From contig CANQXR010000011.1 in assembly GCA_947627855.1 (NCBI GenBank), positions 1,638 to 65,637 on the forward strand: a stretch of DNA of 64,000 bases, given 5' to 3'. Below, piece after piece: positions 1 through 62,428 of the stretch; the stretch's first letter is position 1; each line of letters begins with the position of its first letter. The notes under the pieces were generated by a model. It ran no database searches. It had not been told where the DNA came from and was given only the letters and a program-made list of their open reading frames with translations. The position numbers and the translations under genes were made by a program. This stretch comes from an uncultured Clostridia bacterium (GTDB lineage Bacteria > Bacillota > Clostridia > Lachnospirales > CAG-274).

Positions 1-138
1 TTCTCCTCCGAGCATAGCCGTATACTTTGCCTCCTCCTCGGCGCAAAGTGGCGCAGGCAAAACCTCCGTTCCTCCTATATAATATACTTCCTCTTCCTTC
101 GTTTTTTCAAACAGGCTTTTCAAAGCCTTAAGCAGCAT
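1..138 (-). CDS. sigE: Sporulation sigma factor SigE precursor (pro-sigma-E), N-terminal 46 codons only; gene continues beyond window start
   Basis: Too short for the ORF track. Reverse strand from ATG 138..136 reads MLLKALKSLFEKTKEEEVYYIGGTEVLPAPLCAEEEAKYTAMLGGE. The VYYIGG.E.LP.PL block is the conserved N-terminus of pro-sigma-E/K. The ATG overlaps the spoIIGA stop (130..128), the canonical spoIIGA-sigE layout. Confidence 0.7.
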   Translation of the reverse strand, partial: MLLKALKSLFEKTKEEEVYYIGGTEVLPAPLCAEEEAKYTAMLGGE

Positions 139-1027
139 TGCAAGCATTCTCCTTAACCTCCCCGACTTCAAGAATTTCTGTATTTATAAGCCCTCTGAAG
201 CTGCCGTCCGATGACAGCTTCATAAAGGATATGCCAATCAATATATTTTCATAGGGCTTTTCATTTATGTAAAGCCTGTCTGGCTCAAAACAGGGCAGGA
301 TTCCGCTGCTGTTCCCAAGGCTTTTGTAAAGGGCAAAATAAAAATTTATATCTCCTCCCCTGTCGGCTATATAGCCATACAAATCTTCCTTCAGCCTGCC
401 GCATTCCGGCAAAGCAGCCTTAACAGCGTCAAATTCGGCAACAATAATCCTTTTGCCCGTTACAGGCTCTTTCAGACTGCTTCCCGTATCGGCAAGAGCC
501 TTAAACTCTGCACTTCCCCATTTAAGCTCCGCCCTGACCTCATAAAATTCCCTTTTTCTTATTACGGAATTTCTGTATATCCTCCTTATGCAGCATATAA
601 CAATATATGAAACGCCCACCGAAATCACAAAAACGCCTGCGGATATATGTTTAAGACCGTATGACAGATTTTCTCCTATGTAGTTTCCCACATTTGTGAA
701 ATAAAAAAGTCCGCTGCATATTCCGCCCACAAAGAAAGCCCCTATAACAACAGCCCCGAAGAGCCTGAAAAAAGCCCCTATGCTTTTGGGCAGATAAGCT
801 ATATATACGCTCGCCGCCATAAGAAGCAGATATCCCACAGGGTTTCTCAGAAAATATGCTCCCCTCCACAGGGCTATGACAGTGTATAAAAGCCCCGCAA
901 ACAGACCGCCCAATATACACAGAAAAACACTTCTTTTCACCTTTAAAAACAGTCTGACGCAAATAAACACAAAGGCAACCATTATAAAATTTATCAGAAA
1001 TACTATGTCGGCATAAACCGTTATCAT
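128..1027 (-). CDS. spoIIGA: Sigma-E processing aspartic peptidase SpoIIGA
   Basis: Multi-TM N-terminal half (MITVYADIVFLINF...) plus a C-terminal ALADTGSSL (DTG aspartic protease motif). Sits directly upstream of sigE. Start moved to ATG 1027 (RBS GAGAGG ~10 nt upstream); ORF-track start is 1048. Confidence 0.85.
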   Translation of the reverse strand: MITVYADIVFLINFIMVAFVFICVRLFLKVKRSVFLCILGGLFAGLLYTVIALWRGAYFLRNPVGYLLLMAASVYIAYLPKSIGAFFRLFGAVVIGAFFVGGICSGLFYFTNVGNYIGENLSYGLKHISAGVFVISVGVSYIVICCIRRIYRNSVIRKREFYEVRAELKWGSAEFKALADTGSSLKEPVTGKRIIVAEFDAVKAALPECGRLKEDLYGYIADRGGDINFYFALYKSLGNSSGILPCFEPDRLYINEKPYENILIGISFMKLSSDGSFRGLINTEILEVGEVKENACNAA

Positions 1028-1188
1028 TTTTTCACACACCTCTCTCATAGCCTCGATGGCGCAGCAGCTTGGGGCAAAATTATTTTATATCCTTGAATAA
1101 ATTATACAACTCACTTATGGCAATAAATGGCAAAACTTGTAGCCTGCCTTATAAAAATTAATTTATTGTTATATATGCACAATCTTAA

Positions 1189-2769
<1,581 letters not shown>

Positions 2770-2782
2770 AACATAATAATAT

Positions 2783-2827
2783 AAGGTCAATCATTCCTTA
2801 CGGGGTCTTGATTGACCTTTTTATTTT
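2783..2827 (+). terminator. Rho-independent terminator after gdhA
   Basis: aaggtcaatca / tgattgacctt stem followed by tttttatttt. Confidence 0.7.
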
Positions 2828-2839
2828 CGGAGGTTATAT

Positions 2840-3337
2840 ATGTTCAGAAAAATGAGAAGAGCGGCTCAGCTTCTGACGGAACAGGAAAGCATTGAAATAC
2901 TGAAAAAATGCTCCTCCGGCGTGCTTGCCGTATCGGGAGATGACGACTATCCCTATGCTGTGCCCCTTAGCTATGTGTATGAAAACGGCAGGCTTTATTT
3001 TCACTGCGCCCTCACAGGTCATAAAATCGACGGAATAAAAAGGAATGAAAAGGCTTCATTCTGCGTGGTGGACAAGGACGAGGTTATACCCGAAAAATAC
3101 ACCACACTTTTCAGAAGTGTTATAGTATTCGGCAAGGCTAAAATAATAGAGAACAAGGAAGAAAAAATAAGGATAGCCCTGATGCTTGGCGAAAAATACA
3201 ATCCCGGTCATATTGATGACGCAATGGACGAAATAAACAGGCTTTTTTCCGCCCTCTGCATAATAGAGCTGAATATAGAGCATATCACCGGCAAAGCCGC
3301 CAAAGAACTGGCTGCAATAAAAAAGGATCTGCCTTAA
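2840..3337 (+). CDS. Pyridoxamine 5'-phosphate oxidase-family FMN-binding protein (Nim/5-nitroimidazole reductase-like)
   Basis: MRRAAQLLTEQESIEILKK...GVLAV.GDDDYPYAVPLSYVY.NGRLYFHCA is the typical N-terminal pattern of Nim/PNPOx split-barrel proteins. Confidence 0.75.
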   Translation: MFRKMRRAAQLLTEQESIEILKKCSSGVLAVSGDDDYPYAVPLSYVYENGRLYFHCALTGHKIDGIKRNEKASFCVVDKDEVIPEKYTTLFRSVIVFGKAKIIENKEEKIRIALMLGEKYNPGHIDDAMDEINRLFSALCIIELNIEHITGKAAKELAAIKKDLP

Positions 3338-3356
3338 TGTGGCAGATCCCTTTTTA
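3325..3356. terminator. Bidirectional terminator hairpin between convergent genes
   Basis: ggatctgcc-N7-ggcagatcc followed by cttttta; lies between the stop at 3337 (+) and the stop at 3358 (-). Confidence 0.6.
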
Positions 3357-3357
3357 T

Positions 3358-4758
3358 TTAAATAGGATATACTCCCTTATCGACATCGGCAAGGTTTGCG
3401 TCAATTCCGTACTTCTGAGCCTGACGGAACTTGAAATATTCCTCCGCAACCTGTGGGAAAAGAACATAGCTAAGCACGTCCTCCGGCTGCTCCTTATATG
3501 CCTTTACAGCCTCCTCAGCAGCGGGAAGCTCAGGCTCAAGAAGATCTGCCGGACGGCATTCAACAACCTTTTCATCGCCTATTATTTTCTTTCTTATTTC
3601 CTTTGAAATAGGTACAGGCGTTCTGCCGTACATACCCTTTACAAGATCCTTTGTTTCCTTTGGAGTCATCTTATATCTTTCACCCATAAGCACATTGAGA
3701 ACAGCCTGTGTGCCCACGATCTGACTTGATGGGGTAACGAGAGGAGGATATCCCAGATCCGCTCTTACACGGGGGATCTCTTCAAGAACCTCTCTGTACT
3801 TGTCCTCGGCGTTTGCATTTTTAAGCTGAGAAACAAGGTTTGAAAGCATTCCGCCGGGAACCTGATAAAGAAGTGTCGCTATATCCACAGACAAAACCTT
3901 CGTACTTAACAGACCGCTCTTAAGAGCTTTCTCACGTATAGGCAGGAAGTAGTCTGCGATTTCCTTAAGAAGAACCTCGTCAAGACCGATTTCATATTTC
4001 GTGCCCTTGAACGCCGCATTCATAACCTCTGTTGCCGGCTGTGACGTACCCATTGCAAAGGGACTCATATCCGTATCTATTATATCCGCTCCTGCTTCAA
4101 CAGCCTTCATATATGTCATTGAAGCAACGCCGCTTGTATAGTGGCTGTGAACCTCAAGAGGAAGCTTTACCTCCGACTTGATAGCCTTTACGAGGTCATA
4201 AGCCGACTGCGGAAGAAGCAGACCTGCCATATCCTTTATACATATGGAATCTGCGCCTATATCTCTGTACTGCTTTGCAAGCTTTACAAAATATTCCTCC
4301 GTATGGAAGTCGCTGAGCGTAAACGAAATGGCAAGCTGAGCATGACCGCCTTCCTTTTTGCAGTATTTTACAGCCGTTTCAAGGTTTCTCGGGTCGTTGA
4401 GAGCGTCGAAAATCCTTATAATGTCAATGCCGTTTTCAATACTCTTTCTTACAAACATTTCAACAACATCGTCTGCATAATGACGATATCCCAATATATT
4501 CTGTCCCCTTAAAAGCATCTGGAGCTTTGTGTTCGGGGCTGCCTTGCGTATAAGGCGAAGTCTTTCCCATGGGTCCTCATGAAGAAATCTAAGACAGGAG
4601 TCAAATGTTGCTCCTCCCCAGACCTCCATAGCGCCGAAACCGACCTTATCCATCTTATCCACAATGGGAAGAATGTCTTTTATTGAAAGTCTTGTAGCTA
4701 TAAGTGACTGCTGACCGTCACGAAGCGTACAATCACAGATTTTAACCTTTTTACTCAT
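3358..4758 (-). CDS. Oxaloacetate decarboxylase alpha / transcarboxylase 5S-type carboxyltransferase subunit (no biotinyl domain)
   Basis: N-terminal ICDCTLRDGQQSL (HMGL-like TIM barrel of OadA/PycB/5S). 466 aa, ends without an AMKM biotin domain. Confidence 0.85.
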   Translation of the reverse strand: MSKKVKICDCTLRDGQQSLIATRLSIKDILPIVDKMDKVGFGAMEVWGGATFDSCLRFLHEDPWERLRLIRKAAPNTKLQMLLRGQNILGYRHYADDVVEMFVRKSIENGIDIIRIFDALNDPRNLETAVKYCKKEGGHAQLAISFTLSDFHTEEYFVKLAKQYRDIGADSICIKDMAGLLLPQSAYDLVKAIKSEVKLPLEVHSHYTSGVASMTYMKAVEAGADIIDTDMSPFAMGTSQPATEVMNAAFKGTKYEIGLDEVLLKEIADYFLPIREKALKSGLLSTKVLSVDIATLLYQVPGGMLSNLVSQLKNANAEDKYREVLEEIPRVRADLGYPPLVTPSSQIVGTQAVLNVLMGERYKMTPKETKDLVKGMYGRTPVPISKEIRKKIIGDEKVVECRPADLLEPELPAAEEAVKAYKEQPEDVLSYVLFPQVAEEYFKFRQAQKYGIDANLADVDKGVYPI

Positions 4759-54588: not shown

Positions 54589-56019
54589 TTATGATTTTTT
54601 TAATTCAAACCAGAATGTACTCCCTTTCCCCTTCTCGCTGACAACGCCAAAGTCTGAATTATGGGCGGCAAGTATTTCCCTGACTATTGCCAGCCCCAGA
54701 CCGTTTGCGCCGCCTTTTTTTGAAGCAAAATACCTGTCCCATATATGCGGCAGATCTTCGGGGCTTATGCCGTCGCCGTTGTCGCTTATTTCCGTTCTTA
54801 TAATTCCGCTCTTTTCAAAAACCGAAATATGAAGCCTTCCGTTTTGCTTCATATGAGCAGTGGCATTTGATATAAGATTATATAATACCTGCTGTATGCG
54901 CTTTTTATCTGCATCGGCAAATTTATGGGGTTCTATTGTCTTTGTTATGCTGATGCTGTTTGCTTTGCATATTGGGGAAAACTGTTCAGCCGCAGCCTCT
55001 GCCAAAGCGCTTATATCCGTTTTTCCGAAGTCAAACCTGACTGCCCCCGACTGAAGCTTTGAATAATACAGAATGTCATTTACAAGAAGGGATAATCTGT
55101 CGGCTTCTCTTATTATTATTTCTGCGTCATCATTTGTGTTTTCTTTTCCGTCCATATCCCGTATAAGCTCCGCATAGCCTTTTATCATAGTCAGGGGAGT
55201 ACGCAAATCATGAGAAACATTTGCAAGAAGCTCTCTGCGAAGCTTGTCGGTTTCGGAAATTCTTTTTGCGGCATACACCAAAGAATCGGCAAGCTTGTCG
55301 GTTTCGGCGCAAAATCCCCGTTTAAAGCTTATATTAAAGTCGCCCTCCGCCATTTTCAGAGATTGCTCTGACAGCTGTGAAATAGGTTTTGAAAATCTTT
55401 TCGATATAAATATAGCTATGAGAAAACCGATAATAAGTGCAAGTGCAGTTACGGCGCAAAGCTGAAGTCTGATTATTGACACAGCAGAGCCTACTGCGCC
55501 TATCGGAGTATTAATATACAGAACAGACCCATCAGACAGCCTTTGCCCATATATAAGAGTATCGCTTTTTTTATCGTGGTCGATGGTGTAGCATACACTT
55601 TCGCTGTCTCCGAGCTTTTCAAGAAAATCGTCATAATGCTCAGGCAGATGACGATATGACATATATGTATAGTCTGACCTGTATGGGTTTTTATCCTCTC
55701 CATGTCCGGCAAAGTCATATGGTTTTTTATTGTAGGAAAGACTGTATTCATCTGCGCTGTAAAGTATATTTCCATCACCGTCAGTTAAAAGTATCAATAT
55801 TGAATTTTCCGCAGCAGCAGAATCGATTATAAATTCCTTATTCTCATCTGCGCTGCAAATCTCGTTCGCTATCCTTCTGATGTGAGTCCTTTGCATTACA
55901 TCGTAGAAGCTTTCCAGAAATACCGTCTGCAAAAGCCATAGAACAGCAAATATCATTATTGCAAATATTGTAAAATATGTCCATAATTTAAAGCATATGG
56001 ATTTACTTTCTGATTTCAA
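54589..56019 (-). CDS. Sensor histidine kinase (two TM helices, HAMP, HisKA, HATPase)
   Basis: H-box SHDLRTPLT, N/G boxes NLISNA, DNGDGI, GLGLAIV. Confidence 0.9.
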   Translation of the reverse strand: MKSESKSICFKLWTYFTIFAIMIFAVLWLLQTVFLESFYDVMQRTHIRRIANEICSADENKEFIIDSAAAENSILILLTDGDGNILYSADEYSLSYNKKPYDFAGHGEDKNPYRSDYTYMSYRHLPEHYDDFLEKLGDSESVCYTIDHDKKSDTLIYGQRLSDGSVLYINTPIGAVGSAVSIIRLQLCAVTALALIIGFLIAIFISKRFSKPISQLSEQSLKMAEGDFNISFKRGFCAETDKLADSLVYAAKRISETDKLRRELLANVSHDLRTPLTMIKGYAELIRDMDGKENTNDDAEIIIREADRLSLLVNDILYYSKLQSGAVRFDFGKTDISALAEAAAEQFSPICKANSISITKTIEPHKFADADKKRIQQVLYNLISNATAHMKQNGRLHISVFEKSGIIRTEISDNGDGISPEDLPHIWDRYFASKKGGANGLGLAIVREILAAHNSDFGVVSEKGKGSTFWFELKKS

Positions 56020-56671
56020 ATTTATATCCCACTCCCCGCACTGTAACTATATTGTCCCGACATTTACCTATATGTGAGCGAAGCTGTTTTATCTGCCAGT
56101 CAACTGTACGGTCCGCAGAAAAATACTCATAGCCCCATACGGCTTCTATTATCTGTTCCCTTGTAAGCACTATTCCCATATTTCTGACAAGGTATAACAG
56201 CAGATCATACTCCTTTGCCGTAAGCTCCGTTCTTTTGCCCTCTATATAAACAACTCTCCCAAGCGTATCTATTTCTATGTTTCCCACCTTGATTTTATCT
56301 GACGCTGTTCTGCTGTGCCGACTTATCACGACCTTTATGCGTGCCATAAGCTCCCTTGGAGAAAAGGGCTTTACGACATAATCGTCTGCCCCTGTTTCAA
56401 AGCCAAACAGCTTGTCATATTCCTCTCCCCTCGCCGAAAGCATTATAACGGGAATGTCTTTGATGCCCCGTATTTTTTTGCAGGCGGAAAAGCCATCAAG
56501 CTCAGGCATCATGGCATCCATTATTATAACGTCAAAATCCTCATTGCGGCACATTGAAACAGCCTCAAGCCCATCGGAGGCCTCCGCCGTGTCATACCCT
56601 TCATGCTTTGCATATCTGCAAATAAGAGTGCGTATATCCGGTTCATCGTCAACAATAAGTATTTTTGCCAC
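56003..56671 (-). CDS. OmpR-family response regulator
   Basis: ILIVDDEPD, MPELDG receiver motifs, C-terminal winged helix (..TVRGVGYKF). Start set at GTG 56671 behind AGGAGG; ORF-track start is 56710. 17-nt overlap with the kinase gene. Confidence 0.9.
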   Translation of the reverse strand: MAKILIVDDEPDIRTLICRYAKHEGYDTAEASDGLEAVSMCRNEDFDVIIMDAMMPELDGFSACKKIRGIKDIPVIMLSARGEEYDKLFGFETGADDYVVKPFSPRELMARIKVVISRHSRTASDKIKVGNIEIDTLGRVVYIEGKRTELTAKEYDLLLYLVRNMGIVLTREQIIEAVWGYEYFSADRTVDWQIKQLRSHIGKCRDNIVTVRGVGYKFEIRK

Positions 56672-56769
56672 CGTCCTCTCCTCCTTTCGCTTTTTATGAT
56701 ATTCTAACATATATAAGCTGATTTATCAATTAAAAAGAAACACAGGTTCACCGTGTTTCTCTTTTTTCC

Positions 56770-57201
56770 TTATTTGCTTTCTGTGTAATTCTTTATGGAA
56801 TCAGACTGTTCCTTTGTTATAATGCCTTCATCAACAAGCTCTTCAAGCCCGCCCTTGCGCTCTCTCTTTCTTTCCGCAAAAGCCTCATGACGTTCCTCGG
56901 CGCTCATGTTTTCCATATCAGCATATACTGCGCTTATTTCCTCATGCTTCTTTGACATATATTCGGAAATTTTGTCAGCCGTTGCCTGATCGATAATGTC
57001 TGACTCAACAAGAGCTTCCGTGTCAGCGTGATGTCCTGCCGAATAAACAAATGTCTGTTCTCCGCCTGTTCCGTAATGATTTGCCTTTCCCATTCTGAAT
57101 CCATACTCTGACGTAGTGTCAGCTGCAAATGCAGATACTGTAAATACGGTTATAGCAAGCACAGCGGCATAACCGCATATTTTTCTGAAGCAATATTTCA
57201 T
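56770..57201 (-). CDS. Small exported protein of unknown function, first gene of the two-component operon
   Basis: Signal peptide ...AVLAITVFTVSAFA/AD, then an acidic helical C-terminal half. No family recognised. Confidence 0.5.
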   Translation of the reverse strand: MKYCFRKICGYAAVLAITVFTVSAFAADTTSEYGFRMGKANHYGTGGEQTFVYSAGHHADTEALVESDIIDQATADKISEYMSKKHEEISAVYADMENMSAEERHEAFAERKRERKGGLEELVDEGIITKEQSDSIKNYTESK

Positions 57202-57613
57202 AACTATCTTCCTTTCTGTAATTTTTATTATAATAATATCCTAAACCGATTCTGTGTGTAAAATATGTTATGAATGTGTGATTTATGTGGAATATTTATG
57301 TCTGTGAAAATAAAAAAGCTTCATAATTGCTCTTAAGCTGCACTGCTTGTATCTGAAGTTGCAGATATCCACTGTAATTACATCTGCTTTTATACATTTT
57401 TTGACCTGTCATTTACCGTTTACTTTACTTCCCCATCTGAAAGCTGTATATTTCTTACAATTTTACAGATTTACGGGCTTGGCGGCTTTTTAAAACAGGC
57501 GGAATTGTTTGAACGGTTTTTTTAGGGATTTTTTTAATTATGCTTGTAATATTTCGTATTAAATGTTAAAATATTAGAAGAATGTTAAAAAACACTGCTT
57601 GGGAGGTAGATTT

Positions 57614-59260
57614 ATGGATTATGTTGGTATGCTTATAACCTTTGCCGGCGGTCTTGGCTTGTTTTTGTACGGCGTAAGCCTTATGTCATCGGGTCTGCAG
57701 AAGGTTGCAGGCGACAAAATGAGAAGAATACTTGCCATTCTTACCAAAAACAGGCTTGTCAGTGTGGGCGTGGGCGCTCTTGTGACGGCTATTATACATT
57801 CGTCTGCGGCTACCACTGTTATGGTCATAGGCTTTATAAATGCCGGTCTGCTTAACCTTATGCAGTCTGTGGGCATTATAATGGGTGCAAATATAGGTAC
57901 TACCATAACAAGCTGGCTTGTTTCATCATCGGAATGGGCGTCCTTTATGGAGCCGCTTACCATGGGGCCTGTTGCAATTGCCATAGGCGCTATCTGCGGT
58001 GTTTTCTTTTCAAAGGGACTTATAAAGAGCCTGAGTGAAATAGTTGTGGGCTTCGGTATGCTCTTTATGGGTATAGGGCTTATGACACAGGGCGCTGCAC
58101 CCCTGGCAGGTCTGCCGGCGTTTTCACGGGCATTTGCGGAGCTTGGCTCCAATCCTTTCCTCGGCGTAGTAACCGGTGCGGTCGTTACCGCAATAATACA
58201 ATCCTCCACGGCTTCGGTAGGTATACTCCAGTCCCTCGCCCTTTCGGGCATAGTCACATGGAACAGTGCCGTATACATAATCATGGGACAGAACATAGGT
58301 ACCTGTGTAACGGCTATCTTCTCGGCAGTAGGTGCTTCAAAGAATGCCAAGGCGGCTGCCTGCATACATCTTATGTTCAATGTGATAGGCTCCGTTATTT
58401 TCAGCGTGCTTGCATATCTGCTTTTCAGATTCGCCCTTGTGGATCTGGGAAATCAGGTTATAACCATAACGGAAATATCCGTTATACACACAGGCTTCAA
58501 TGTGCTTAATACTGTTTTTATGTTCCCATTTGCCAATATTCTTGTTAAGGCAGCCGAAAAGATGACCTCCTTCTTTAAGGAAAACGAGGACGAAGCTGTT
58601 CTTGTACATCTTGACAACAGGCTTTTGGGCACAACGCCTATCGCAATTGAAAACAGCATTAAGGAAATCGTAAGAATGGGCAAAATGTCCCTTGAAAACC
58701 TTATCCTTGCAAGCGATGCACTTTTCGACCACGACAGCGAAAAAATAGAAAAGGTCGATGCAAGAGAGGACAGCATAGACCAGCTTCAGAACACTATAAC
58801 GAGGTTTATGGTTAAAATATGCAACGCTCCGGGCATAAGCATAAAGGAAAACAAGGTCGTTACATCTCTTTTCCATACTGTAAACGATATGGAGAGAATA
58901 GGTGATTACAGCGAAAACCTTGTTGAGTCGGCTCAGTTTATGATGAAGGAAAATCTTGAGTTTTCCGATAAGCAAAAGGAAGAGCTGAGAAAAATGTGCG
59001 ACGAAACCATCTCCTGCGTTAAAAATGCCCTGAATGCCCTTGAATTCAACGACTATACAAGCGTTGAAAGAACGATCAGAAAAGAGCAGAACATAGACGA
59101 TATGGAAAAGAGCTTCAGAAGGCTCCATGTGGAAAGACTTTCCGAAAATTCAGTAGACCCCACAACGGGCATTTCATATCTCGACACCCTCACAAACCTC
59201 GAAAGAGTCGGCGACCATGCCCTTAATGTGGCGCAGGTCGTAATGAGAAGATTCTTATAA
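57614..59260 (+). CDS. Na/Pi cotransporter family protein with C-terminal PhoU-like repeats
   Basis: Duplicated Na_Pi_cotrans blocks (GANIGTT, GQNIGTC). C-terminal PhoU-type helical repeats with ERIGD / ERVGDHA. Start at ATG 57614 behind GGGAGG. Confidence 0.85.
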   Translation: MDYVGMLITFAGGLGLFLYGVSLMSSGLQKVAGDKMRRILAILTKNRLVSVGVGALVTAIIHSSAATTVMVIGFINAGLLNLMQSVGIIMGANIGTTITSWLVSSSEWASFMEPLTMGPVAIAIGAICGVFFSKGLIKSLSEIVVGFGMLFMGIGLMTQGAAPLAGLPAFSRAFAELGSNPFLGVVTGAVVTAIIQSSTASVGILQSLALSGIVTWNSAVYIIMGQNIGTCVTAIFSAVGASKNAKAAACIHLMFNVIGSVIFSVLAYLLFRFALVDLGNQVITITEISVIHTGFNVLNTVFMFPFANILVKAAEKMTSFFKENEDEAVLVHLDNRLLGTTPIAIENSIKEIVRMGKMSLENLILASDALFDHDSEKIEKVDAREDSIDQLQNTITRFMVKICNAPGISIKENKVVTSLFHTVNDMERIGDYSENLVESAQFMMKENLEFSDKQKEELRKMCDETISCVKNALNALEFNDYTSVERTIRKEQNIDDMEKSFRRLHVERLSENSVDPTTGISYLDTLTNLERVGDHALNVAQVVMRRFL

Positions 59261-59357: not shown

Positions 59358-59687
59358 TTAAAGCATATTTTTATATTCTTTTCCCCATTTTTCCATAGAA
59401 TCGAGTATAGGGCGCATTGTTTCGCCAAGCTCCGAAAGGGAATATTCAACCTTCGGGGGAATCTCGGCGTATACAGTTCTTGTGATTATGCCGTCCGCCT
59501 CCATAGAACGCAGACTATCTGTCAGAACCTTCTGACTTATGCCCTCAAGGGACCTTTTAAGCTCATTGAACCGCCACGGACGCTCTCTTAAATTTCTTAG
59601 TATTAACAGCTTCCATTTGCTGCCTATAAGCTGAACGGTCACGGCGACAGGGCATTCGGGCAATTCTTCCTTCTTAAGCATACACAC
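59358..59687 (-). CDS. HxlR-family winged-helix transcriptional regulator
   Basis: CPVAVTVQLIGSKWKLLILRNL...RFNEL...GISQKVLT..LR.ME.DGII.R is the diagnostic HxlR pattern. Divergent from the peptide operon. Confidence 0.85.
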   Translation of the reverse strand: MCMLKKEELPECPVAVTVQLIGSKWKLLILRNLRERPWRFNELKRSLEGISQKVLTDSLRSMEADGIITRTVYAEIPPKVEYSLSELGETMRPILDSMEKWGKEYKNML

Positions 59688-59875
59688 ACCACCTTTTTAT
59701 TACATTTGAATCTGAATGTATATTAAAATAATAGTGCATAAGTCTGTATTTGTCAACGGTTACATTTTTGTGACTGACTGATAAAAAAGTGCGTACTTGT
59801 TTTGGGGAAAAATTTCCCTTAATATGAATTGTGGGAAGTGAAAAAAATCCCGAAATTACATAAGGAGGAATGAAA

Positions 59876-60022
59876 ATGGCACTTTCAGATTTATACGGCT
59901 GGAACAGAAACAGCAGTAAGGCGGCTCCATCGTCAGCCTGCGGAACAGCCTGTGGTGCCCCTGACAAGCCGGACGACAAACCATCGCCATGCGGCTCTGC
60001 CTGCGGTGCGCCGGACAAATAA
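59876..60022 (+). CDS. 48-aa Cys-rich precursor peptide with tandem ACGX units (candidate RiPP precursor)
   Basis: Not in the ORF track. AAGGAGG at 59862..59868, 7 nt before the ATG. Translation MALSDLYGWNRNSSKAAPSSACGTACGAPDKPDDKPSPCGSACGAPDK*. An 11-residue module C-G-x-A-C-G-A-P-D-K occurs twice. Lies immediately upstream of a radical SAM/SPASM gene. Confidence 0.75.
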   Translation: MALSDLYGWNRNSSKAAPSSACGTACGAPDKPDDKPSPCGSACGAPDK

Positions 60023-60029
60023 TTTTCCG

Positions 60030-60074
60030 CTCCCGACAACAGGACTTTTCCCCTTGTTGTCGGGAGAGCTTTTA
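60030..60074 (+). terminator. Hairpin with short U-tract between precursor and maturase genes (likely partial terminator/attenuator)
   Basis: ctcccgacaaca-N13-tgttgtcgggag (12-bp perfect stem) followed by agctttta. Confidence 0.45.
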
Positions 60075-60091: not shown

Positions 60092-61132
60092 ATGATACAT
60101 ATGAAGGAATATTTTGCTTTTCAATGGCACATTACGGACGAATGCGACCAAAGATGTAAGCACTGCTATATATTTTCGGAAAATACAGATAAAAAGACGG
60201 ATAATATGACCTATGGGCAAATGAAGGAGGTATTGGCAAACTGCGAGGACTTCTGCATTATGTACGACAGACTGCCCTACTTCTATATTACAGGAGGCGA
60301 CCCACTGCTTAACCCCGACTTCTGGAGGCTTGCGGAGCTTCTGAAAAGCAGGAGCATTCCCTTTGCCATTCTTGGCAACCCTTTTCACCTCACGGAAGAT
60401 GTATGCAGACGGCTGAAGGAAAGCGGCTGTCTGAAATATCAGCTTTCGGTGGACGGCATGAGAAAAACCCACGATTGGTTCAGAAAAAGCGGCTCCTTCG
60501 ACATAACCATGGATAAAATAAGCCTTATCAAAAAAGCAGGTATGAAAGCAGTCGTTATGACCACCGTATCGGGAACAAACATAGACGAAATTCCCGATAT
60601 TACAGACGCCGTTGTCGAAGCCGGAGCGGACGTGTTTGCCTTTGCGAGATATTGTCCCACAAGCAGTGAAAAAAGCGTAAATATAGATCCTTTGCGCTAT
60701 CGCAGACTTCTTGCGGAGTGCGACAGGAAATTCAAGGAATATGAAAAAAAGGACTGCAAAACCTATTTCAGCAGAAAAGACCACCTATGGACACTTTTCA
60801 GATATGAAACGGGAGAATTCACTATTCCCGAAGCTGCCGCAAAGGGTGTTATATACGATGGGTGCAACTGCGGAAACTGCCACCTTACCATTCTGCCCAA
60901 CGGCGACGTTATGGCTTGCAGAAGGGTAAACGGCAGCATATTGGGCAGCGTATTTGAAAACAGACTGGCGGACATATGGGTATGTGAAGCGGAGGAATTC
61001 AGAAACTACGACAAATTCATAAAATGCAGCAAATGTGAATTACTGGCGTGGTGCAGAGGGTGTCCTGCTGTTGCGGCAGGAGCCGGAGGAGATTTTTACG
61101 CTCCCGACCCGCAGTGTTGGAAGGAGGTCTGA
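60092..61132 (+). CDS. Radical SAM / SPASM-domain peptide-modifying enzyme
   Basis: CDQRCKHC (CxxxCxxC) at residues 18-25. C-terminal CNCGNCHLTILPNGDVMAC ... CSKCELLAWCRGC ... DPQC matches the SPASM seven-Cys pattern. 346 aa, no N-terminal RRE-sized extension. ATG 60101 is an alternative start. Confidence 0.9.
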   Translation: MIHMKEYFAFQWHITDECDQRCKHCYIFSENTDKKTDNMTYGQMKEVLANCEDFCIMYDRLPYFYITGGDPLLNPDFWRLAELLKSRSIPFAILGNPFHLTEDVCRRLKESGCLKYQLSVDGMRKTHDWFRKSGSFDITMDKISLIKKAGMKAVVMTTVSGTNIDEIPDITDAVVEAGADVFAFARYCPTSSEKSVNIDPLRYRRLLAECDRKFKEYEKKDCKTYFSRKDHLWTLFRYETGEFTIPEAAAKGVIYDGCNCGNCHLTILPNGDVMACRRVNGSILGSVFENRLADIWVCEAEEFRNYDKFIKCSKCELLAWCRGCPAVAAGAGGDFYAPDPQCWKEV

Positions 61133-61134
61133 AC

Positions 61135-61713
61135 ATGGAGCTTATGGAAATCATAAAAAAACGGCGCTCAATACGCCGATATTCAGACAGACAGATAAGC
61201 CGCAGAGATATGGAAAAAATTATAGAAGCGGGAGCCGCCGCCCCCAACGCAGGAGGAGGACAGAGAAGCATATTGGTCGGAGTGCATAACAGTCGGCTGA
61301 CAACACAAATAGGTCTTATGAATATGAAAAAATTCGACCGCTCCAAGCTTGCAGGCTCCTACGTTTCAAGGGAACAGCCAAGCGTAATAGACGACCCTTC
61401 AATAAGGAACGGATTTTACGGCGCTCCCTCAGTAGTGATTATTTTCGGTCAGAAAAATTTTATGTTCCGTACAGCAGACGCATTCTGCTGCGCCGAAAAT
61501 ATGGTTTTGCAGGCAGCGGAGCTTGACATCGCCTCCTGCATAATTTCAAGAGGAGAAGAAACCTTTTCAGATGAGGAAGGCGAAAAGCTGCTCAGAGAAT
61601 GGGACATACCCGAAAATTATTCCGCCGTATGCTTTGTCATTCTCGGATATACAGACGACAAACAGCCCTCTTCAAAACCCATACGGCAGGGAAGAATAAA
61701 AATTATAGAATGA
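61135..61713 (+). CDS. Nitroreductase-family flavoprotein
   Basis: IIKKRRSIRRYSD, AAPNAGGGQ and other nitroreductase-fold motifs. ATG 61135 lies 2 nt after the rSAM stop, with AAGGAGG inside the rSAM 3' end. The ORF-track start 61048 overlaps the rSAM gene. Confidence 0.85.
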   Translation: MELMEIIKKRRSIRRYSDRQISRRDMEKIIEAGAAAPNAGGGQRSILVGVHNSRLTTQIGLMNMKKFDRSKLAGSYVSREQPSVIDDPSIRNGFYGAPSVVIIFGQKNFMFRTADAFCCAENMVLQAAELDIASCIISRGEETFSDEEGEKLLREWDIPENYSAVCFVILGYTDDKQPSSKPIRQGRIKIIE

Positions 61714-61722
61714 GGTGATTAT

Positions 61723-62343
61723 ATGAACGCAGAAACCTGTTTAAAAAAGCTTCAATATATAGGCGTGCTTGCATTTGCAACAGTTGACGGACAGGGATAT
61801 CCCCAAGTACGCAACATAAGCGCAATACACTATGAGCCGGACTCCCTGTATTTTTTCACCGCAAAGGGAAAGGCATTCTGTCGGGAGCTTATTAAAAGCA
61901 GACACGTTCAGATATTGGGATATACAAAATATAAGGAAATGATACGCCTTTCGGCTGACGCTGAGCCTGTCCGTGAGGAGGAACAGCAGAAATGGACAGA
62001 TATAATATTTGAAGAACAGCCCTATCTTTACAATATATATCCCGACGACACCCGTCTGATGGGAGGAATGGTTTTCCGCATATCAGAGGGTGAAATCGAA
62101 TATTTCAATCTCGGTGTGAACCCAATTTTCAGAGAAAAATATGCCATGGGCGGCAGAAAGTCCCTGTTCAGGGGATATTACGGCATAACCGATAAATGTA
62201 CAGGCTGCGGAAAATGTGTCGTAAGCTGTCCCCAACACTGCATTGAAAAGGGAAAGCCCGCCGTAATAAACAGTATACACTGTCTGAGCTGCGGCATATG
62301 CTTTGACATCTGCCCCGTAAAAGCCATAGAAAGATTGGACTGA
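61723..62343 (+). CDS. PNPOx-like split-barrel domain fused to a 2x[4Fe-4S] ferredoxin domain
   Basis: N-terminal VLAFATVDGQGYPQVR (PNPOx-like). C-terminal CTGCGKCVVSCP and CLSCGICFDICP ferredoxin motifs. 9-nt gap to the nitroreductase gene. Confidence 0.8.
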   Translation: MNAETCLKKLQYIGVLAFATVDGQGYPQVRNISAIHYEPDSLYFFTAKGKAFCRELIKSRHVQILGYTKYKEMIRLSADAEPVREEEQQKWTDIIFEEQPYLYNIYPDDTRLMGGMVFRISEGEIEYFNLGVNPIFREKYAMGGRKSLFRGYYGITDKCTGCGKCVVSCPQHCIEKGKPAVINSIHCLSCGICFDICPVKAIERLD

Positions 62344-62391: not shown

Positions 62392-62428
62392 ACAGGAGGC
62401 GAGAACAGGCTCAGCCTCCTGTGTTTTA
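62392..62428. terminator. Terminator closing the peptide operon (convergent with murC)
   Basis: acaggaggc-N13-gcctcctgt followed by gtttta. Confidence 0.7.

Follow-up and report, generated by a model that had tools for sequence, protein, structure and literature searches.

A 64,000-nt stretch of DNA from an uncultured Clostridia bacterium (contig CANQXR010000011.1; hereafter the window, meaning this stretch at its full length) contains a 48-aa open reading frame (ORF), at 59876..60022 on the + strand with its stop codon included, which is almost certainly a bona fide precursor gene of an ACGX-system operon. Its product, MALSDLYGWNRNSSKAAPSSACGTACGAPDKPDDKPSPCGSACGAPDK, belongs to a family of cysteine-repeat peptides built on Ala-Cys-Gly, and not on Cys-x3-Asp, as their conserved unit. 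We are just as sure of the layout of the operon, in which the peptide gene is followed by genes for a radical S-adenosylmethionine (rSAM)/SPASM enzyme, a nitroreductase and a PNPOx-ferredoxin protein, with the gene for an HxlR regulator lying divergently. As for what the enzyme does to the peptide, we lean, tentatively, toward a modification of each cysteine in place within its own A-C-G context.

The position of the ORF, the peptide sequence and the residue numbering C22/C26/D30 and C39/C43/D47 were all given correctly by the original prediction, and its view of the product as a leader plus core precursor with repeated Cys modules is genuine, with the gene for an rSAM/SPASM maturase directly downstream. 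The leader spans residues 1 to ~20 and carries the conserved motif MALS(D/N)LxGW, which in the window reads MALSDLYGWN, in agreement with the invariant M1, A2, L3, S4 and W9 of 58 homologs (all the distinct peptides recovered from 80 related genome loci, L003-L082). The core consists of two modules of the form (A/P)CG(T/S)ACGAPDK, at 59939..59968 and 59990..60019 (+), whose A-C-G units read ACGT-ACGA ... PCGS-ACGA. The two CG(T/S)ACGAPDK modules are identical at 23 of 30 nt, and because the mismatches fall mainly at third codon positions (six of seven), the repeat appears to be kept at the protein level rather than to stem from a recent DNA duplication. Translation would start at the ATG at 59876, 7 nt after a Shine-Dalgarno sequence AAGGAGG (59862..59868, +), and a similar motif is found no more than 20 nt upstream of the start in 57 of the 58 homologs. 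An alternative in-frame ATG at 59870 (MKMALS...) was rejected, as it is too near the Shine-Dalgarno sequence and all homologs begin with MALS.

Family identity is equally clear. The peptide matches the NCBIfam model TIGR04341 "ACGX-repeat peptide" over its full length, with 41.9 bits (E=1.2e-10) for a curated cut-off of 28, and the identical public protein bears a precomputed Pfam label, PF27855 (Target_ACGX). A search of 5.8 billion proteins returned 22 matches at E≤0.01, namely the peptide's own sequence and 21 homologs, all of them PF27855, and relatives of the peptide are named "ACGX-repeat peptide" by NCBI. The window peptide displays the tandem A-C-G-x units C-terminal to a conserved short N terminus that define this family and, as expected for the pairing, a TIGR04340 enzyme gene begins 70-79 nt past the peptide stop. 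The peptide lies upstream of the enzyme in 76 of the 80 related loci, and three of the four loci with no peptide match lack upstream sequence, which leaves L024 as the sole real exception. The ACGX-type rSAM gene of L024 (4977..6056), whose product is 69% identical, has no peptide, HxlR, nitroreductase or PNPOx gene nearby, and is followed by a Zn-dependent dehydrogenase-like gene; this enzyme may be an orphan, or its peptide may be encoded elsewhere. With both proteins above their curated cut-offs, the window cassette shows no essential difference from the ACGX system at large. Its peptide, with two double modules and four cysteines, is one of the shorter members of a family with 2 to 15 cysteines, and its C39 is preceded by Pro where Ala is usual. 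The gene is thus not "hidden," as had been claimed, since the exact 48-aa sequence is already a public gene call (NCBI, ENA and Logan). The bioinformatic definition of both peptide family and enzyme dates back years, and NCBI's pipeline assigns their names automatically. A literature search for the ACGX system across 8 million full texts gave no paper on its chemistry or function, and one combining rSAM, SPASM, nitroreductase and precursor peptide found no characterized equivalent.

The pattern of variation among the 58 homologs argues that this frame is the one translated. Over the first ten codons, the summed column entropy amounts to 3.7 bits for codon position 1, 3.3 for position 2 and 9.8 for position 3, and every synonymous codon is in use for the Ala, Cys and Gly that are invariant in the A-C-G units. 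The comparison of synonymous with non-synonymous changes that had been proposed as a check thus favors the peptide frame over an ORF on the opposite strand, to which we return below. Among ~60 homologous peptide genes, two appear frameshifted, in L026 and in L083 (3667..3975, after MALSNLSGWHEMAAPASACGAGDEACG), which probably reflects assembly errors within repeats or occasional decay.

The gene at 60092..61132 (+; public call from 60101) encodes the cognate maturase. The protein matches TIGR04340, "radical SAM/SPASM domain protein, ACGX system," at 572.8 bits, well over the curated cut-off of 400, and carries this very name at NCBI and JGI. Pfam recognizes a Radical_SAM domain (80.8 bits) and a SPASM domain (33.6 bits, cut-off 21.5). 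The CX3CX2C motif is formed by C18, C22 and C25, while the SPASM cysteines are C258, C260, C263, C276, C312, C315, C321, C324 and C342, with a spacing C312-x2-C315-x5-C321-x2-C324. The enzyme thus combines the motif with the C-terminal Cys-rich domain of a SPASM maturase, and has no separate N-terminal recognition domain. Its gene is the most informative neighbor of the peptide, and the original prediction was silent on it.

Among characterized families scanned with NCBIfam, the best-scoring is SbtM (171.4 bits), which outranks AhbD (128) and the NirJ-type enzymes and, by a wide margin, the thioether-forming PapB (62.9), StsB (55) and SkfB (50). The match to SbtM (TIGR04082) covers profile positions 197-515 of 516, lacks the full architecture and is below the curated cut-off of 350, and the PapB model (NF047865, cut-off 340) ranks only 15th among the NCBIfam matches, which places the enzyme outside the PapB family. 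In 10 more distant enzyme relatives, SbtM comes consistently second and the order of scores is the same as for the window enzyme; of the 150 best enzyme representatives, 10 were classified and none of these is an SbtM-family member above cut-off. A sequence search of the PDB gave weak matches to SkfB (47 bits), CteB (40 bits, by phmmer), BlsE and SuiB. We also produced an AlphaFold2 model, with a mean predicted local distance difference test score (pLDDT) of 67.6, in which the rSAM core is good and the SPASM portion (residues 249-343) falls below 50. When compared to the PDB with Foldseek, this model finds generic rSAM neighbors at template-modeling (TM) scores of ~0.5, including SkfB and anSME, which do not tell the possible chemistries apart. 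The enzyme is widespread: its sequences fall into at least 3,626 clusters (90% identity), and it matches at least 561 stretches of a collection of species-representative genomes at 69-75% identity. The carriers, among the matches listed, are mostly gut Oscillospiraceae, Lachnospiraceae and other Clostridia, and those in culture include Massilicoli timonensis Marseille-P3755, Brotonthovivens ammoniilytica and Lachnospiraceae bacterium KGMB03038.

What is conserved around the cysteines was established on 397 Cys in 57 distinct peptides (the 58 recovered minus one that is frameshifted and was set aside). Ala precedes the Cys at 96% and Gly follows it at 99% of these positions, whether or not an Asp comes after. 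For 180 of them (45%), the residue at +4 is another Cys instead of Asp and the next Asp is at +8; the overall ratio of Cys to core Asp is 397:214. In the window peptide, C26-D30 and C43-D47 fit the Cys-x3-Asp spacing, while C22 and C39, with their next Asp at +8, do not. In some members Asp at +4 is rare or missing, as in L060, which has four copies of ACGASAPEEKP, and in P0016, where it is missing altogether. Others, such as L065, display single-Cys modules, ACGAxDKP, in which Cys and Asp are 1:1.

The neighbors of five divergent ACGX-like enzymes extend this comparison. All five candidate substrates contain Cys-Gly, and an acidic residue follows a Cys in two only. These two are L085 (...CNCGGDCNSECGEGECNDGGCNI), which is rich in Cys plus Asp/Glu, and L092 (...EMCCCGDRS); the cores of L086 (...CGSGCSGGGCSGPGCGSSCGSSCR), L091 (...LCSSCSSCGSSGSCG) and L093 (...GGACGTGGGGGGGGC) have none. 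The L085 and L086 candidates also retain a leader with the same hydrophobic-x-x-Trp spacing.

How might these units be modified? The N-terminal MALS(D/N)LxGW motif would provide a handle for recognition by the enzyme, which would then act on the Ala-Cys-Gly repeats of the core by 5'-deoxyadenosyl radical chemistry, each Cys being modified where it stands. We consider two options for the product. The first would be an SbtM-like four-electron oxidation that turns Cys into a 5-thiooxazole, with the carbonyl of the Ala before it taking part. SbtM turns Cys/Sec into a thio(seleno)oxazole and removes four H in doing so (PMC11002830), and the signs of a 5-thio(seleno)oxazole are a shift of -4 Da and an absorbance at ~305 nm (PMC11002830 and 10.1101/2025.11.18.689057). 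As this ring takes the carbonyl of the residue before the Cys, it would fit the conserved small Ala at -1. Thiooxazole is the leading candidate for the product, though taken by itself we rate it as rather improbable. The second option would be a six-membered ring joining Cys-S to Gly-C-alpha, for which the enteropeptins, with their ring between Cys-S and the adjacent C-alpha, offer a precedent (PMC12395415), and which would fit the invariant Gly at +1. In either case, the flavoproteins encoded downstream might act as electron partners or catalyze a second oxidation step, and the Asp-Lys that follows each module would be a functional part of the module, contributing charge or a metal ligand, and not a cross-link acceptor.

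Several observations weigh against modification in place. Asp is found at +4 of 199 of the 217 module-terminal Cys (92%), with Glu in six more, and Asp-Lys is kept even at the very C terminus, with no linker after it, both of which are expected if Asp takes part in the chemistry. With 171 bits for a cut-off of 350, and little above the 128 bits of AhbD, the SbtM match does not allow its function to be simply transferred. The candidate substrates of the five divergent enzymes are assigned by adjacency only, at one locus each. Moreover, neither flavoprotein is encoded in 8 of 67 loci (neighbor counts, here and below, are restricted to loci with enough flanking sequence), and therefore the nitroreductase and the PNPOx-ferredoxin are not obligatory. 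Finally, the literature holds no experiment on any ACGX system that we could find, and the chemistry is inferred.

Some of these observations are also what commends the alternative put forward originally, in which a PapB-like enzyme would form a Cys-Asp thioether at the second Cys of each module, one ring each, as in ranthipeptides, possibly alongside another modification. The premise is correct, since PapB links Cys-S to Asp-C-beta in the six CX3D/E motifs of freyrasin, and accepts spacers of 0-6 residues, of nearly any type (PMC9413430). Like freyrasin, the ACGX system has a Cys-x3-Asp spacing, here at the second Cys of each module, an rSAM/SPASM maturase and a multirepeat core. The acidic residue at +4 of most module-terminal Cys, the Asp-Lys retained at the C terminus, the 1:1 ratio in the single-Cys modules of L065 and the L085 candidate with its many Cys and Asp/Glu all speak for such a link, as does the presence of thioether maturases among the nearest structures (SkfB and CteB by sequence, SkfB by fold), which also include non-thioether enzymes such as SuiB, BlsE and anSME. 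However, the enzyme scores 62.9 bits with the PapB model, far under SbtM, AhbD and NirJ, and nearly half of the cysteines in the family, the 180 with Cys at +4, have no reachable Asp, yet these lie in the identical, near-invariant A-C-G context. In PapA, the intervening residues are unconstrained, whereas the flanks of the ACGX cysteines, Ala at -1 and Gly at +1, are the most constrained positions, and the ACGX leader is very short and different. L060 mostly lacks Asp at +4, P0016 lacks it entirely, and in three of the five divergent candidate substrates no Cys is followed by an acidic residue. In addition, a PapB-like rSAM domain is fused to an ACGX-like one in two of the ten distant relatives, which suggests that the two perform complementary, not redundant, reactions. 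A Cys-Asp thioether is therefore possible but, in our opinion, somewhat improbable. The interpretation of the peptide as the precursor of a peptide made by the ribosome and modified after translation (RiPP) with Cys as the target stands, while its Cys-Asp chemistry is somewhat disfavored.

The loci of the divergent enzymes show further peculiarities. In L092, a 737-aa protein (380..2593) is composed of two rSAM/SPASM halves, the N-terminal one PapB-like (194 bits) and the C-terminal one ACGX-like (303 bits), and is preceded by a 38-aa ORF (96..212) ending in ...YAYEMCCCGDRS. In L091, the sequence ...LCSSCSSCGSSGSCG is the C-terminal tail of a larger protein cut by the contig end (2..214), ahead of genes for an ACGX-like rSAM enzyme (255..1241), a second rSAM/SPASM enzyme (1248..2066) and a DUF4376 protein (2066..2581); this Cys-rich tail may be an rSAM substrate carried on a structural, perhaps phage-related, protein. 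In L093, an 89-aa peptide (3590..3859, -) ends in ...NLGIDGGACGTGGGGGGGGC, an A-C-G unit followed by Gly8-Cys, and adjoins two rSAM enzymes (132..1532 and 1587..3455), one of which is ACGX-like and has an N-terminal extension of ~270 aa of no recognized type.

A second alternative to modification in place, which we find unlikely, is a sactipeptide-type product, in which Cys sulfur would bond to the alpha-carbon of a Gly, Ala, Ser or Thr that is not adjacent to it, in the same or a neighboring module, forming a ladder of rings, or else a conversion of Cys to formylglycine or to a dehydro or epimerized residue. SkfB is the best PDB match in sequence and fold, followed by CteB and anSME, and the cores abound in good alpha-H donors, namely Gly, Ala and Ser. 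These matches are, however, weak and generic (47 bits; TM ~0.5), the sactipeptide maturase models StsB and SkfB score only 55 and 50 bits, far under SbtM, and the anSME motif, C/S-x-P/A-x-R, is absent from the ACGX peptide.

The last alternative, that a 121-aa frame on the opposite strand (59674..60039, -) holds the real gene, the 48-aa one being incidental, can be dismissed with near certainty: although the 121-aa frame is open in the window and its equivalent remains so opposite the peptide gene in 51 of the 58 homologs, variation concentrates at the third positions of the peptide frame, the antisense portion outside the peptide gene yields only three tblastn matches (E<1e-3) among the 80 related loci, and the frame starts with TTG, has no obvious Shine-Dalgarno sequence, spans the promoter/operator region and has no public gene call. 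Its openness is expected, because the GCN/TGC/GGN codons for Ala/Cys/Gly (or, more generally, GCN/TGY/GGN) rarely give stops when read backwards. A count of antisense stop codons is thus uninformative, and was replaced by the codon-position entropy and by the conservation of the non-overlapping antisense part. Nor does this frame mask the peptide in automated calls, as had been suggested, since the identical ENA contig calls the peptide and nothing on the opposite strand.

The remainder of the operon is compact. A nitroreductase-family flavoprotein (61135..61713, +; Pfam Nitroreductase, 73.9 bits) is encoded 2 nt after the rSAM stop and, after another 9 nt, a PNPOx-like flavoprotein fused to a 2x[4Fe-4S] ferredoxin domain (61723..62343, +; Pfam PNPOx_N and Fer4), with a terminator-like hairpin, identified by consensus match only, ending the four-gene operon at 62405..62422 (+). 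In related loci, the nitroreductase gene is directly downstream of the rSAM gene in 45 of 67 (with gaps of 3-155 nt, mostly <40), PNPOx-ferredoxin lies within 2.5 kb downstream in 42 of 67, and a divergent HxlR gene within 1.2 kb upstream of the rSAM gene in 50 of 68. Natural rSAM-nitroreductase fusions of 553 aa, forming four protein clusters (P0177-P0180), argue that these two proteins work together. The fusion genes are located at L083 4001..5662 and L084 47..1708, and a PNPOx-ferredoxin gene then follows. Our NCBIfam scan of the nitroreductase revealed no specific similarity to azoline dehydrogenases, and weak matches to NfsA, BluB and FbiB. An unbiased clustering of the ORFs neighboring the cassette across loci found no recurring protease or transporter, and no metal-related gene was seen in the ACGX neighborhood.

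Farther out, 0.5-4 kb past the rSAM gene in other genomes (L003-L082), this clustering revealed additional genes of redox or stress type: genes for a Sir2-family protein (42 loci), a Macro domain (30 loci) and a Zn-dependent dehydrogenase/quinone-oxidoreductase-like protein (20 loci) are found, none of which adjoins the cassette in the window. The Sir2/Macro neighborhood resembles sirtuin/macrodomain oxidative-stress operons. On the other side, the window contains a histidine kinase/response regulator pair (54589..56710, -), a 143-aa protein with a hydrophobic N terminus (56770..57201, -) and a Na/Pi-cotransporter-PhoU fusion (57599..59260, +), which appear unrelated to the ACGX system because they are syntenic only in the identical contigs L001 and L002.

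The HxlR/DUF24-type winged-helix regulator is encoded divergently at 59358..59687 (-; public start 59681; Pfam HxlR, 112.9 bits), and the region between it and the peptide gene holds several candidate control sites. A sigma-70-like promoter for the HxlR gene, TTGACA-17-TATTAT (59728..59756, -), matches the consensus at 11 of 12 positions, by consensus match only. Next to it lies an operator-like palindrome, GGTTAC-N6-GTGACT (59758..59775), conserved as ggTtac-N6-gtgac in 42 anchored intergenic regions, the general form of which is GGTNAC-N6-GTNAC, and which is located upstream of an invariant 10-mer, GTGCGTACTT (59789..59798), itself the core of a near-palindrome, AAAGTnCGnACTTT. Across families, 42 of 43 regions between the HxlR and peptide genes contain this 10-mer, whose distance to the peptide ATG is mostly 86-92 nt; it abuts or overlaps a putative -35 element, TTGTTT (59797..59802), which, with a putative -10 element TAATAT (59820..59825), was read by eye and not called by a promoter scan. 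The GTGCGTACTT/AAAGTnCGnACTTT site and the GGTNAC-N6-GTNAC palindrome are probably operators, and GGTTAC-N6-GTGACT and AAAGTGCGTACTTT may be target sites of the HxlR protein. Regulators of the HxlR/DUF24 type, among them YodB, CatR and HypR, sense electrophiles and oxidants by means of thiols and control nitroreductases and azoreductases via inverted-repeat operators (PMC3351151), and the ACGX cassette, with its divergent regulator, flavin oxidoreductase genes and inverted-repeat putative operators, has the makeup of such a stress unit.

Directly after the peptide stop lies a strong hairpin (60030..60066, +). The 70 nt past the stop have a minimum free energy of -27.1 kcal/mol (z=-5.2), and a comparable hairpin (z<-2) is found in 88% of the 58 homologs, with a T-rich tail in 10%. 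Because a good T-tract is usually missing, as it is in the window, this is not a canonical intrinsic terminator, and it was not called as one by a terminator scan. It is probably an attenuator or an mRNA stabilizer, which would favor the precursor over the enzyme transcript. No Rfam family was detected anywhere in the window.

Comparison with known systems places the ACGX cassette in context. SbtM/SbtMa (TIGR04082; Lewis et al. 2021, cited in PMC11002830) is also an rSAM/SPASM enzyme acting on Cys/Sec of a ribosomal peptide, and is the best-scoring characterized family for the window enzyme. However, SbtM has an additional ~195 residues at its N terminus, which the window enzyme lacks, and in contrast to the SbtM system there is no selenocysteine in the ACGX peptide. 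Like ACGX cassettes, SCIFF (CteA-CteB) combines a small Cys-rich peptide with one rSAM/SPASM enzyme, occurs widely in Clostridia and lacks a nearby protease or exporter, and a physiological rather than antibiotic role is suspected. SCIFF nevertheless involves different peptide and enzyme families (CteB scores 40 bits, and the SCIFF maturase model is outside the top 25 matches), and the ACGX cassette differs in its flavoprotein genes and HxlR regulator. The paired cysteines of ACGX peptides, ~3 residues apart, resemble the CGSC of MbnA. In bufferins and methanobactin-type peptides, cysteines adjoining small residues become thiooxazole or oxazolone-thioamide metal ligands, with a link to stress adaptation, and the enzymes responsible are, unlike the ACGX maturase, non-heme iron MNIO oxidases using O2 (10.1101/2024.03.18.585515; PMC12538549).

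Because there is no conserved protease or exporter, while redox flavoproteins and a regulator of thiol-sensing type are encoded nearby, the context indicates that the product most likely stays inside the cell, where it would take part in a response to electrophile, oxidant or metal stress rather than act as a secreted antibiotic. A bolder and distinctly improbable proposal is that ACGX peptides are stress-induced intracellular poly-Cys scaffolds, switched on by a thiol-sensing HxlR regulator and converted by the rSAM enzyme, with help from its flavoprotein partners, into strings of Cys heterocycles such as 5-thiooxazoles.

The gene is not a discovery, and the interest lies in the chemistry and function of a widespread, curated family. 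To what was known of it, our analysis adds a conserved flavoprotein operon, operator-like sites by an HxlR-type redox regulator, the absence of export or cleavage genes and the Ala-Cys-Gly unit, which together point toward a modified peptide, kept inside the cell and linked to stress, in common gut anaerobes. If the scaffold proposal were true, strictly anaerobic gut Clostridia would possess, in the ACGX peptides, an equivalent of the metal or redox-active peptides of the bufferin/methanobactin type that MNIO enzymes make, one that does not depend on oxygen, and rSAM thiooxazole chemistry would gain both a physiological role and a class of substrates that are new.

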